Assembly: GCA_965203325.1 (NCBI GenBank)
Contig: OZ241875.1
Span: 2,400,001-2,464,000, forward strand
Reading direction: 5' to 3'
DNA from: a bacterium
GTDB lineage: Bacteria > UBA8248
Length of the DNA stretch: 64,000 bases
How positions within the stretch are numbered: position 1 is the stretch's first letter; every line of letters begins with the position of its first letter. Position numbers and translations under genes: made by a program. The notes beneath the pieces were generated by a model. The model did no database searches. It was not told the origin of the DNA and worked only from the letters and a program-made list of their open reading frames with translations. Below are positions 7,181 through 28,033 of this stretch, one piece after another.

Positions 7181-7834
7181 TCAATCGTTGGGTTCGGGGA
7201 AGGCGTCCGGCCAGTTGTCCAGAACTTCCTGCAGATAAGCCTTGAGTTTCGCCGGGTCGGGCCGGAGGCGGCCTACGTCCTCGACGATATCTATTTCGTC
7301 GTTCGGCAGCTTGAGTGAATCGTGGTAGCGGTTTCTCATGTTGAAATAGCTGATGACGAAGGTGAGTTCCACGAACTCTGCGTCCGTGAAATGCTTTTGC
7401 ACTTCCTCGGCCACGTCGTCCCGGAACTTGGCGGAGTTGCGCGTGACGTGTTCGGCCCAGAGGACGGTCGCTTTTTCCCTTGGGGTCAGCAGCGGCGAAT
7501 CCATGTACTCATCCGAGCCGATGGCGGCGACGTGTTCATCGGTGATTCCCAGCACCCGGCCGAGAGCGGTGTTGTGCGCGAGTCAGTAGTCGCACCCGTT
7601 CAACTGGCTGGTCTTGATGACGGCGATCTCTTTTATCTTGGAAGAAAGCACGGTGCCGAGCCCCTCGCGCATCAGTGTCTGGACGAGGGGATAGAAGATG
7701 CGCGCGAGAAACGGGGAGTGCGCCGTCGCCCGGGTGGAATTGACCTGCCTGCTTTGGAAGTTGTTCAGGATGTCGAAGGTGCGCGCGACCTCGCCTTCTG
7801 CTCCCTCCCTGCCGAGCAACGGAACTCTGGACAT
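7181..7834 (-). CDS. AhpD/carboxymuconolactone decarboxylase family protein, probable selenoprotein (CxxU; TGA at 7583-7585)
   Basis: ORFs 7583-7924 and 7181-7555 are in the same frame and join as ...KEIAVIKTSQLNGCDY-TGA-LAHNTALGRVLGITDE..., matching the AhpD ExxxxxxSxxNxCxxCxxH motif. AGGAG SD precedes ATG 7834. Confidence 0.85.
7549..7569 (-). promoter_or_regulatory. Putative bacterial SECIS hairpin of the AhpD-like gene
   Basis: mRNA CCGCUCUC-GGCC-GGGUGCUGG folds by eye with the apical GG at +22/+23 after UGA. Confidence 0.5.
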
Positions 7835-24623: not shown

Positions 24624-25994
24624 ATGACGATTGTGGAACAGATTGCGGCGTTCGCCGCGAACACCAGTTTCGATGACCTCTCGGACGAGATGCGTACCCA
24701 GTTAAAGACCCTCATGGTCGACACCATCGGCTGCGCCATCGGCTCGCTGGGCGAAGGCCCCGTCCGCTACCTGCGCGAGCAGGCGGATGATTTCGGCGGT
24801 GCTGCGCATTGCACGCTCATCGGCGGCGGCAAGACGGCACCCGATGCCGCGGCGTTCTACAACACCTCGCTGATCCGCTATCTCGATTTCAACGACGGCT
24901 TCATGGGCAAGCTCGCCACCTCACACCCGAGCGACAACACGGGCGCCGTGATGGCGGCGGCCGAATACGCCGACGCGAGCGGGGCGGAGTTCATGACGGC
25001 CCTCGCGCTGGCGTATGAGGTGCAATGCCGCCTCTGCGACAGCGCGCCTTACGAGAAAAGGGGGTTCGACCAGCCCATGGCGGGCGCCTACGCCGTGGCG
25101 GCGGGCGCCTCTCGCGCCCTGGGGCTGGATGCGGAGAAGACGGCCAACGCGATCGCGATCAGCGGCGTGCGCCAGAACCCCCTGCTCATCACGCGCACGG
25201 GCGAGCTCTCCCACTGGAAGGGCTTCGCCTATGCGGCGGGTTGCCACACCGGTGTGCACTCGACGTTTCTGGCCATGCGCGGGGTGACGGGGCAGCTTCA
25301 GCTGATCGAGGGTCCCCTGGGCGTATTCGAGTCCGTGACGGGGGAATTCGAGGTCGACTGGTCGGACACATCCTTGCGCAAGATGCTCGAGATCAGCGTG
25401 AAGCGCTACAACGCGGGCCTCCATTCCCAGACGGCCATCGAGGGCGTCATCGGCATGAAGCGCGAGCACGGCTTCAGCCCGGAGGACATCGAAGAGGTTG
25501 AAATCGGGATTTACGAGCGCGCCTATTTCATCATGGGCGAGGGCAAGGCTGGCGCGCGCGAGCACGTGCTGAACAAGGAGACGGCGGACCACAGCCTGCC
25601 GTACGTGCTCTCCGCCGCCATCATCGACGAGCAGGTCCTGCCCGCCCAGTACGAGGAAGCGAGAATCCGCGCAGACGACGTGCAGACGCTTCTGAAAAAG
25701 GTGCGCACCACCAATTCCGATGAGATGACGGCCAGATACCCCGCGCAATCGCCCGTGCTCATCACCATCACGTTGAAAGACGGGAGCGTCCACAAGCTGG
25801 ACAAGCCCACCTGGGAGGGGCATTTCACCGCGCCGATGAGCTGGGCGACGGTGAACGAGAAGTTCGAGGCCTTGAGCGAGGCCCACGCGGACGCCTCCTT
25901 GCGCGGGGAGATCGTGGACGCCGTATCGAGGCTCGATTCGATACGTATCACGGAGCTGGCCGCCCTGCTCGAGCGGGTGAACACGCCGAGGTAG
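24624..25994 (+). CDS. MmgE/PrpD family protein
   Basis: 'DTIGCAIG', 'RYLDFND', 'HPSDN', 'GELSHWKG', 'ETADHSLPY'. Confidence 0.92.
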   Translation: MTIVEQIAAFAANTSFDDLSDEMRTQLKTLMVDTIGCAIGSLGEGPVRYLREQADDFGGAAHCTLIGGGKTAPDAAAFYNTSLIRYLDFNDGFMGKLATSHPSDNTGAVMAAAEYADASGAEFMTALALAYEVQCRLCDSAPYEKRGFDQPMAGAYAVAAGASRALGLDAEKTANAIAISGVRQNPLLITRTGELSHWKGFAYAAGCHTGVHSTFLAMRGVTGQLQLIEGPLGVFESVTGEFEVDWSDTSLRKMLEISVKRYNAGLHSQTAIEGVIGMKREHGFSPEDIEEVEIGIYERAYFIMGEGKAGAREHVLNKETADHSLPYVLSAAIIDEQVLPAQYEEARIRADDVQTLLKKVRTTNSDEMTARYPAQSPVLITITLKDGSVHKLDKPTWEGHFTAPMSWATVNEKFEALSEAHADASLRGEIVDAVSRLDSIRITELAALLERVNTPR

Positions 25995-26079
25995 CGCAAA
26001 ACACCCCCTGGAACGATATTGATCATGGAGCGCGCCCTGCCGCCGGAGCAGATTTCACAGGCTTCAAAGGAGACTTGAG

Positions 26080-26325
26080 ATGTCCGATATGGAGGTGACG
26101 GTCTATTCGTCCACGTTCTGAGCGCCGTGCAAGGCGGTGAAAGAGTTTCTTTCCCATCATGGCGTGGCGTACACGGAAAAACTCGTCGATCAGGACGAAG
26201 AGGCCCTGGAGGAACTCTTCCAGCGGGCGAACATGCGGGCCACGCCCGTCATATTCATCGGCGAGGAGAAGGTGGTCGGCTTCGACCGGGCGAAGCTCCA
26301 GGCGCTTTTGGGACTCGCCGCGTGA
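26080..26325 (+). CDS. Glutaredoxin (NrdH/YruB-like), probable selenoprotein (UxxC; TGA at 26119-26121)
   Basis: AAGGAG SD, ATG 26080: MSDMEVTVYSSTF-TGA-APCKAVKEFLSHHGVAYTEKLVD...ATPVIFIGEEKVVGFD. The TGA occupies the first Cys of the CxxC, in frame with track ORF 26137-26325. Confidence 0.9.
26122..26165 (+). promoter_or_regulatory. Putative bacterial SECIS hairpin of the glutaredoxin gene
   Basis: Lower stem GCGCCGUG/CAUGGCGU starts right after UGA; upper stem GAAAG/CUUUC with loop AGUUU; apical G-U at +24/+25. Confidence 0.65.
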
Positions 26326-26499
26326 ACGGGAGGCGAAAGTCGCTTCCCTGCCCCGGCTGAGGGTGGAGCAAGCTCAAGTGTCAAACCCCTCGCGGGCTTG
26401 GCATGGGTTGGGGGCCGGTGTTAGAATCTGCCCGGTTTTTGGGCCTGACCTATCGGTTTCATTTCTTGCTGCCTTTTCTTTTGTATCTGGAGATTCGTA

Positions 26500-27456
26500 G
26501 TGGCTAAGCGTGATTTCGAAATCATCATCATCGGAGCGGGGCCGGCCGGGCTGACGGCGGGGTTGTATACGGCGCGCTCGAAACTGAACGTGGTTTGCTA
26601 TGAAAAGCTCGCCCCGGGCGGCGAGATTCTCAACACCGAGCACGTGGAAGACTACCCGGGTTTCGAACTGGTCGGCGGCCAGGAGCTTGCGGCCAAATTC
26701 GCCGATCACGCCATGAAGTTCGGCCTCAACATCGAAATGGAAGAAGTTCAGGAGGTCAAAAAGGACGGGGATGATTTCCTCGTCACGACCGACATGGGCG
26801 TGCGCCGCTGCGGGGCGGTGATCTACACCCCCGGCGGCTATCCGAGAAAGCTCGGCATTCCGGGCGAGGAGAAATACGCCGGCAAGGGCGTGAGCTACTG
26901 CGCGCTTTGCGACGGCGCGTTCTTTCAGGATGAGGTCATCACCGTCGTGGGCGGCGGGAACAGCGCCGTGGAAGAGGGACAGTTCCTCACGAAGTTCGGC
27001 ACGAAAGTCTACATCATCCACCGCCGCGATCAATTCCGCGCCCATGCGGTGCTGGTGGACAAGATTCGCGAGAACCCGAAAGTCGAGATCATCACCGACT
27101 ATGTGGCCGAGGAAGTGGTGGGCGATGATCGGGAGATGAAGAAGCTGCGCATCAAGAACGTGAAGACCGGCGAGACGAAAGAACTCGACGCCACCGGCCT
27201 GTTCGTCTTCATCGGTTTTATTCCGAACACGGATTTGATAAAAGAGCATGTGGAGAAAGACGATGCCGGCTTCATCCTGACGGACCAGAACATGGAGACG
27301 AACGTTCCGGGCCTGTTCGTGGCCGGTGACTGCAGAAGCCAGTTAATCCGCCAGATCACCAACGCGTCGGGCGACGCGACGACGGCGGCGGTGGCGGCGG
27401 AGAAATATCTCGAAGCCCAGGAAGAGGCCAAGAAGGCCGCCGCGGCGGCTTCCTAG
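26500..27456 (+). CDS. trxB: Thioredoxin reductase
   Basis: GAGPAGLTA, 'GKGVSYCALCDG', 'GGGNSAVEE', 'HRRD', 'GLFVAGD'. Confidence 0.97.
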   Translation: MAKRDFEIIIIGAGPAGLTAGLYTARSKLNVVCYEKLAPGGEILNTEHVEDYPGFELVGGQELAAKFADHAMKFGLNIEMEEVQEVKKDGDDFLVTTDMGVRRCGAVIYTPGGYPRKLGIPGEEKYAGKGVSYCALCDGAFFQDEVITVVGGGNSAVEEGQFLTKFGTKVYIIHRRDQFRAHAVLVDKIRENPKVEIITDYVAEEVVGDDREMKKLRIKNVKTGETKELDATGLFVFIGFIPNTDLIKEHVEKDDAGFILTDQNMETNVPGLFVAGDCRSQLIRQITNASGDATTAAVAAEKYLEAQEEAKKAAAAAS

Positions 27457-27478: not shown

Positions 27479-28033
27479 ATGGAGTTCACCAGGGGGATCC
27501 AGAAGTTCTTTCTCTGGGATATCGTGAAGGGCATGTCCGCCACGCTTCGGCACATGTTCAAAAAGCCCGTCACGCTGCAATACCCGACGGAGCGTTGGGA
27601 GCCGCCCGAGCGTTTTCGCGGATTCCTGGGCCTCACGCGCGACTTCAAGACGGGCGAGGAGCTTTGCATCGGCTGTCTGAACTGCGAGAAGGCCTGTCCG
27701 GTCGACTGCATCACCATCGTCACGGCGGGCAAGGGCCGCGAGATGTACGCCAAGGAGTTCTACATCGACTACATGCGCTGCATGTATTGCGGGCTTTGCA
27801 CGGAGGCGTGCCCCACGACGCCCAAATCCATCGTCCACACCCACCAGTACGAGACGCCCGGCTATTTCCGCGACGATCTCGTCTACGAGAAAGAGCGCCT
27901 CTACGACGTCTGGGAGAAAGAGGTGAACTACACCGGCCCCAGGCCGTGGGGCAAGCTGTTCGGCTTGAGGAACGAGGAAGCGGACATGCGGCCCGAGCCC
28001 GAGACTCCCGCCGAGACGGCACCCGCCGAATAG
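27479..28033 (+). CDS. nuoI: NADH:quinone oxidoreductase subunit I-like 2x[4Fe-4S] protein (orphan)
   Basis: 'KPVTLQYP.E....PERFRG', CIGCLNCEKACP and CMYCGLCTEACP. Confidence 0.88.
   Translation: MEFTRGIQKFFLWDIVKGMSATLRHMFKKPVTLQYPTERWEPPERFRGFLGLTRDFKTGEELCIGCLNCEKACPVDCITIVTAGKGREMYAKEFYIDYMRCMYCGLCTEACPTTPKSIVHTHQYETPGYFRDDLVYEKERLYDVWEKEVNYTGPRPWGKLFGLRNEEADMRPEPETPAETAPAE

Follow-up and report, generated by a model that had tools for sequence, protein, structure and literature searches.

The window analysed in this study is a 64,000-nucleotide stretch of a bacterial genome (G000; one contig, 4,392,711 bases, 95.5% complete, 3.25% contamination). A small glutaredoxin gene interrupted by an in-frame TGA was found on its forward strand, between an MmgE/PrpD-family gene and trxB (Table 1). 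The reading frame starts with ATG at 26080 and is intact through to the TGA stop at 26323–26325. Direct reading of the sequence confirmed the elements listed in a first-pass annotation of this DNA: the Shine-Dalgarno sequence and ATG, the VTVYS strand, the TGA in U-A-P-C, the cis-Pro TP and the GFD were all present. Residues 6–63 of the 81-aa read-through protein matched PF00462 (58.1 bits; cut-off 22.9). The standard ORF list contained only a 62-aa ORF starting at GTG 26137, and the expectation that gene callers miss the selenoprotein gene was borne out, as databases carry this 62-aa form without the active site. The best matches in a database search were about 62 aa long, and the exact short sequence was present in the protein collection; the read-through sequence, queried with C in place of U, was absent from it. 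Named members were 0 of the 40 examined in the database cluster of the short form. In practice, the database entries for the closest relatives of this Sec-glutaredoxin lack the active site. An assembled contig from run X15, an RNA library, covers the gene and X16 covers part of the region; assembled contigs of this kind do not bear on transcription.

Table 1. Features of the glutaredoxin locus (window coordinates) and loci of the selenoprotein census.
Feature	Position	Strand	Description or evidence
AhpD/CMD-like selenoprotein gene	7184..7834	-	CxxU; TGA at 7585
MmgE/PrpD-family gene	24624..25994	+	Conserved upstream neighbour; domain match and relatives' gene order
Shine-Dalgarno AGGAG	26068..26072	+	7 nt ahead of ATG; sequence
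Sec-glutaredoxin gene	26080..26325	+	81 aa; U14-A-P-C17; YruB/Cp9/clostridial Grx1 type
Sec codon TGA (codon 14)	26119..26121	+	TGA in 30/30 relative loci; aligns with first Cys of CxxC in Cys homologues
SECIS lower stem	26122..26165	+	+1..+8 with +37..+44; conserved only in part
Truncated 62-aa gene call	26137..26325	+	From public databases; lacks U and C of the active site
SECIS upper stem-loop	26139..26153	+	+18..+32; loop G 26145 / U 26146; folding, covariation, consensus fold
Zinc-ribbon (seleno)protein gene, 5' remnant	26322..26363	+	14 codons; LysW-like, triple-CxxC; start overlaps glutaredoxin stop
Sigma-70-like promoter ahead of trxB	26398..26427	+	10/12 matches, extended -10; putative function
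trxB, thioredoxin-disulfide reductase	26500..27456	+	TIGR01292, 362.6 bits; cut-off 343.45
Census loci	L091-L147; C1:2238557/2238566 (+); C1:4053009 (-)		One contig of G000

Comparison with related sequences makes it almost certain that the apparent stop codon encodes selenocysteine and that the selenoprotein call was right. Profile searches detected selA, selB and selD in G000, all over their curated cut-offs, and selC was found as a tRNA-Sec with anticodon TCA; selD itself has an in-frame TGA. With all four genes present, the lack of selB or selC, which the first-pass annotation had named as grounds for giving up its reading, therefore does not apply. All 39 matches at E<1e-12 contained a TGA (39 of 61 genomes had a match), and in the returned loci, where the codon position was verified, TGA was at the active-site position in 30 of 30. 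Detection of selA succeeded in 38 of the 39 match-bearing genomes, the exception being 79% complete. A separate collection that partly overlaps the 61-genome set gave 34 loci, 29 with TGA and five with a Cys codon, and all five Cys-codon loci were without the SECIS stem. The in-frame UGA is aligned to a conserved Cys of homologues, as required of a bacterial selenoprotein gene. Records titled Nitrospinota or Nitrospinaceae held the closest named relatives, the TGA form extends to records titled Rokubacteria, Anaerolineae, and Sulfobacillus, and four of the five Cys forms were in records titled Patescibacteria or Woesebacteria. Sponge metagenome runs contain a close sequence; a contig of run X2 covers the TGA codon, and its 10 differences are all elsewhere, although X2 may not be independent since this run and the best-holding run belong to one study. 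Seven Rokubacteria/Methylomirabilia loci (L077, L080-L083, L086, L089) showed the same Sec-glutaredoxin and SECIS stem in a different gene context; the phylum of these records is also the holder of the 63-gene selenoproteome record.

Downstream of the Sec codon, the upper stem GAAAG (+18..+22)/CUUUC (+28..+32) with G+24 and U+25 in the loop was found as first described. The SECIS of E. coli fdhF has G23/U24 in its loop. The bacterial SECIS rule given in the available text of PMC13188914 places a G at loop position 1 or 2, 16–37 nt from the UGA, and the hairpin has the geometry of the published consensus (small loop, early G, distance, conserved stem). The 8-bp lower stem that had also been claimed forms in a 47-nt fold but is missing from the consensus fold of 29 distinct sequences, which consists of a 6-bp upper stem only. 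Because of this, and with 81.5% of its alignment cells able to pair, it was rejected as part of the conserved SECIS and is regarded as accessory. Single-sequence fold z-scores ranged from -1.4 to -2.4 in five trims, and a simple model found an equally or more stable hairpin at 780 of 3000 Cys codons of G000, for which reason a single-sequence hairpin was rejected as proof of Sec. Weak as evidence when taken alone, the hairpin gains support beyond chance from the comparative data. The upper SECIS stem both covaries and suppresses synonymous change. The +20/+30 pair was A-U in 21 and G-C in nine of 30 loci, with no mismatch (20 and nine in the 29 distinct sequences), so that a Lys/Arg replacement goes together with a synonymous Leu substitution, without exception in the 30 loci; since the nine G-C loci fall in two genera, the covariation represents few events and not nine. 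The stem codons Phe+9 and Val+6 were TTT and GTG, respectively, in 30/30 loci (across the genome, 17.5% of Phe codons are TTT), and the codon choice of the Glu-Phe-Leu stem was found in 2 of 230 such tripeptides in G000. Among 21 sequences from the genus, the stem codons had a synonymous divergence of 0.10, compared with 0.20 for codons +1..+5 and 0.35–0.51 for the other flanks.

The gene is a new member of an already known Sec-glutaredoxin family. It combines the UxxC motif with a PF00462 match over cut-off, the features of Sec-Grx, which is entered as experimentally verified in the available part of Table 1 of PMC13188914. All NCBIfam scoring of the redoxin was done with C in place of U, and none of the models reached its cut-off, the best being YruB (TIGR02196; 79.8 of 88.55 bits). 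The protein had been called NrdH-type, an assignment that was rejected: NrdH-redoxins share the glutaredoxin fold but differ in score (TIGR02194, 50.8 against a cut-off of 85.75 bits), in motif (there is no C-[VMI]-Q-C) and in gene context, as the gene lies outside an nrdHIEF operon. In known cases, NrdH-redoxins are reduced by TrxR. Compared to classical glutaredoxins (C-P-[FYW]-C; TIGR02181), UAPC is found and the score was 54.4 against 90 bits; the UXX-star models were also under cut-off (NF041212, 44.1/66; NF041211, 32.6/100; NF047338, 25.7/97 bits). The best solved structures were 7c10 (E 5e-17), which we take to be Clostridium oremlandii Grx1, and then 3zij, B. cereus BC3987 (7e-12). On this comparison the nearest relatives of the protein are clostridial Grx1 and the Cp9/BC3987/YruB group rather than NrdH.

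Clostridial Grx1 (PDB 7c10/7c12) is like this protein in fold, in Sec at the first CxxC position and in near-equal length, but its motif is UPXC. In the available text of PMC7642778, C. oremlandii Grx1 is described as a native selenoprotein that is glutathione-reduced and proposed as the MsrA reductant. In contrast, glutathione synthesis was not found here, and relatives of this gene show coupling to a zinc-ribbon gene. Neither of the two MsrA genes of G000 has an internal stop; a tandem Sec-Grx/Sec-MsrA pairing is therefore inapplicable here, and Sec-MsrA was rejected as tandem substrate. The part of PMC3720550 available sets BC3987, Cp9, and NrdH apart as groups, describes the Cp9/BC3987 group as having thioredoxin function and places the Cp9 gene between thioredoxin reductase and peroxiredoxin genes. 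Our protein shares the [IV]-x-[ILV]-[YF]-[ST] strand, the cis-Pro and the Gly-Phe with the Cp9/BC3987/YruB group, aligns to BC3987 without gaps and, like Cp9, is encoded next to thioredoxin reductase; it differs from the Cp9/YruB redoxins by Sec for Cys and by having no adjacent peroxiredoxin gene.

The real operon partner, missed in the first-pass annotation, is predicted to be a zinc-ribbon (seleno)protein gene. Folding of the DNA 3' of the glutaredoxin stop led to a conserved motif, and 21 of the 30 loci have an ORF (96–121 aa, three CxxC-type motifs) that starts at or just after this stop, with a 4-nt overlap in 19 of them. The first two motifs both contained Sec in nine of the 21 loci, only the first in six, only the second in one and neither in five. 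The remnant in the window retains the CxxU codon (TGA at 26358–26360), and approximately 250 nt following it are deleted relative to L060. A profile search detected the ribbon gene in 26 of 61 genomes, in all 26 directly behind the Sec-glutaredoxin; five of these genomes belong to another family, in which trxB is unlinked. Genome searches gave no second ribbon copy elsewhere in G000. One contig of run X2 spans the deletion junction without differences and another has 301 letters there, which shows that ribbon-plus and ribbon-minus forms both occur in nature. Values of pN/pS were 0.10/0.42 (ratio 0.24) for eight ribbon-less loci and 0.044/0.336 (ratio 0.13) for 13 ribbon-bearing loci; the glutaredoxin thus stays under purifying selection without the ribbon gene, with somewhat weaker constraint.

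The LysW/ArgW carrier (PF21344, NF041070) was the best NCBIfam match of the ribbon protein (E 1e-10 to 1e-16), with zinc-ribbon knuckles in common. The ribbon protein differs in being about 99 aa long and in carrying three CxxC motifs, of which the first and second are often CxxU; it scored 41–59 against a cut-off of 75. No row for this family was found in the available part of the 119-family Table 1 of PMC13188914, and a literature search, from which most subscription papers fell outside, returned nothing relevant on a LysW-like selenoprotein or on selenoproteins of this lineage; tables in refs 64 and 66 of PMC13188914 could already list either of them. In the first hairpin of the ribbon gene 92% of cells pair, a covariation that is not significant because 73 of 500 shuffles reach that value. 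Genes of MerE, MerT, MerF, MerR, or CopZ type follow the ribbon gene in L073-L076. Within this mer-type cluster, a MerT-like frame (L073:4898-4903) has two adjacent TGA where homologues have Cys-Cys. No MerA over cut-off was found in the 29 family genomes searched, so gene order is what points to a role in metal handling.

The trxB gene was the sole match at E<=1e-60 in G000. It had been placed directly downstream of the redoxin gene; the two are 174 nt apart, but the gap holds the remnant of the deleted gene and a promoter-like site. The same -10 motif precedes trxB in 10 of 22 loci, and 11 others have a different TATAAT box, as judged by eye. In 23 of the 24 family genomes with both genes, trxB has the same orientation and is at most 3.6 kb away; in the remaining genome the two are on separate contigs. 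Outside the family linkage was 0/7: in two genomes about 290 kb separates the genes along one contig, and in five they are on different contigs. The gap ahead of trxB accepts insertions (L058:4723-5578, L061, L063, L067, L072:4668-7808): several genus members carry two hypothetical genes without a Pfam match, and L072 a 1046-aa gene. Directly after trxB, at 27479-28033, lies a stand-alone gene with two 4Fe-4S motifs that is conserved in the family and presumably NuoI-like. A conventional Cys thioredoxin is encoded at C1:312703; trxB seems separately promoted, and this thioredoxin is its likely default substrate. No gshB was found at E<=1e-30 in any of 47 genomes, nor PF04262 gshA in the 95.5% complete G000, where the search for glutathione synthesis returned only YbdK-type (two) and RimK-type ligases. 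Gamma-Glu-Cys could be a product of the YbdK-type carboxylate-amine ligases, and glutathione could come from a host.

Because the glutathione synthesis genes were not found, NADPH/TrxB is fairly probable as the reductant of the Sec-glutaredoxin. The Sec-redoxin/TrxB couple proposed at first is plausible in this respect, but it is not demonstrated by adjacency, given the promoter-like site of trxB itself and the lack of linkage outside the family. As a dedicated, co-transcribed pair it is improbable: the common strand, the gap of <180 nt in five genomes including this one, the linkage retained in 23/24 family genomes and the Cp9/Cp34 gene-order precedent (available text of PMC3720550) are set against the promoter-like site, gaps of 1.4–3.6 kb in many relatives, a single trxB that must also serve the Cys thioredoxin and a ribbon gene that is the more deeply conserved partner. 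Somewhat less unlikely is a real selenoprotein whose re-reduction depends on a small thiol, either gamma-Glu-Cys or glutathione taken up from outside, or on a flavoprotein reductase other than TrxB, with trxB no more than an inherited neighbour. Clostridial Grx1, the nearest solved structure, is reduced by glutathione according to the available text of PMC7642778, YbdK-type ligases are present, and two MerA-like flavoprotein reductases, both below cut-off, could be candidates; the promoter-like site of trxB, the insertions ahead of it and the 0/7 linkage outside the family agree with mere inheritance of position. The small-thiol route is opposed by the failure to find either gshB or PF04262 gshA and by the marks shared with the Cp9/BC3987 group, which the part of PMC3720550 available describes with thioredoxin function. 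TrxB would thus be the likelier reductant, though neither a demonstrated nor a dedicated partner.

By comparison, it is scarcely conceivable that the gene is a pseudogene or the TGA a sequencing error, or that the product is a 62-aa protein beginning after the TGA. Databases do call the 62-aa form and the neighbouring ribbon gene really is broken, but TGA is kept in 39/39 close matches, selection is purifying on either side of it, the X2 contig spans the codon with all 10 differences elsewhere, and the short form is without both active-site residues, so that conservation already refutes these readings.

The explanation we prefer as a whole, a TrxB-recycled Sec redoxin that ancestrally formed a pair with the ribbon protein and is now a general reductase, is probable. 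SelB acting on the in-frame hairpin would deliver Sec-tRNA at UGA 14, with the machinery present in the genome, and the product would be a small redoxin of the Cp9/YruB/clostridial-Grx1 type. In the manner usual for CxxC enzymes, the selenolate of Sec would attack a target disulfide and Cys17 would resolve the adduct to give a selenenylsulfide, after which the enzyme would be re-reduced, most likely via NADPH/TrxB. Ancestrally, the gene would head a translationally coupled pair with the zinc-ribbon (seleno)protein, behind which several relatives have mer-type transporter and MerR genes. This gene order (ribbon, mer-type transporters, MerR) suggests that the original function was probably to maintain the thiols or selenols that bind soft metals in their reduced state. 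In the present genome, where the ribbon gene is deleted and the glutaredoxin and its SECIS are intact, the protein is most likely a general disulfide reductase for other clients.

The first-pass annotation had also suspected a selenium-rich network, and a hand-curated census of G000 gave 58 selenoprotein genes. All TGAs were scored with a coding-potential model trained on G000, and candidates were hand-picked from the lists; a score of >=15 with a hairpin of <=-5 kcal/mol gave 31 TGA, five TAA, and three TAG candidates. Sixty candidates were scanned with Pfam, of which 55 were kept and five (L105, L123, L136, L149, L150) rejected as gene junctions or for having no domain; this gene and two paralogues from local BLAST complete the 58. 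They include 14 AhpD/CMD-like, eight UGSC, five DsbA-like, five OsmC-like, four GrdB/PrdB-like, four Prx-like and three deiodinase-like genes, two each of rhodanese, DUF442, and Grx, and one each of GrdA, Trx, Rdx, ArsC, DsrE, MGMT, DUF3179, SelD, and a CoA-transferase-fold subunit. The AhpD gene mentioned in the first-pass annotation is probably the AhpD/CMD-like gene in the window. Hairpin enrichment in the census is partly circular because 52 of the 58 had passed the hairpin filter, and for the four GrdB-like genes the Pfam stretch stops before the TGA. Alignment to Cys was judged by motif, and Sec near gene ends may be missed; a motif-driven rescue gave 36 further TGAs, none convincing by eye, and a within-genome paralogue screen was too noisy for use. 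As the highest identity among the 56 members compared was 69%, the genes are not strain duplicates.

In relatives, TGA was present in 19/19 UGSC matches (4 of 5 genomes). L144 (G000:C1:3929618-3930442, -), the CoA-transferase-fold alpha subunit, has an in-frame TGA with a strong hairpin, and the TGA is kept in 24 genomes; the terms 'CoA transferase' and 'DUF442' do not occur in PMC13188914. L100 and L120 (G000:C1:692673-693134, 2265222-2265671) are DUF442/phosphatase-fold genes with TGA in a CX4R-like site. L104 (G000:C1:843802-844551) encodes a selenoprotein in which Grx is fused to DinB; its SECIS is the stem of the Sec-glutaredoxin gene in its G-C variant, and about 1.8 kb away, on the opposite strand, is a MerA-like flavoprotein gene that scored below cut-off. 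Besides, a Cys-type msrA directly follows selD (G000:C1:1726100-1727671, -), and L148 (G000:C1:2099551, -), outside the 58, has a TGA within a short C-terminal context that includes Cys. Sec formate dehydrogenase was rejected for G000, as none of nine molybdopterin-domain matches has an internal stop. A heme-copper oxidase subunit I is present, and this single gene suggests that the organism may use oxygen.

The surroundings of the gene, a lost ribbon partner and a near-record selenoproteome, outweigh the gene itself in interest. Strains with and without the ribbon gene offer a natural comparison for finding the substrate of the redoxin. The available text of PMC13188914 gives 57 and 63 genes as the highs for bacterial selenoproteomes, the latter possibly from co-assembled strains, and states that selenoproteins are seldom retained by aerobic bacteria; by the census, a genome on a single contig falls between these two figures, in an organism with an oxygen-reducing oxidase. 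We put it forward tentatively, as nearly as likely as not, that this lineage combines a selenoproteome of record class (58 genes or more on a 4.39-Mb contig, with a heme-copper oxidase and without Sec formate dehydrogenase) with a soft-metal module that is based on selenium and has no MerA; in this module the Sec-glutaredoxin would reduce a zinc-ribbon selenoprotein so far uncatalogued, and the genus would be losing the module one gene after another. If true, a record-class selenoproteome in an oxygen-using lineage would run against the view that selenoproteins are rare in oxygen-using bacteria.
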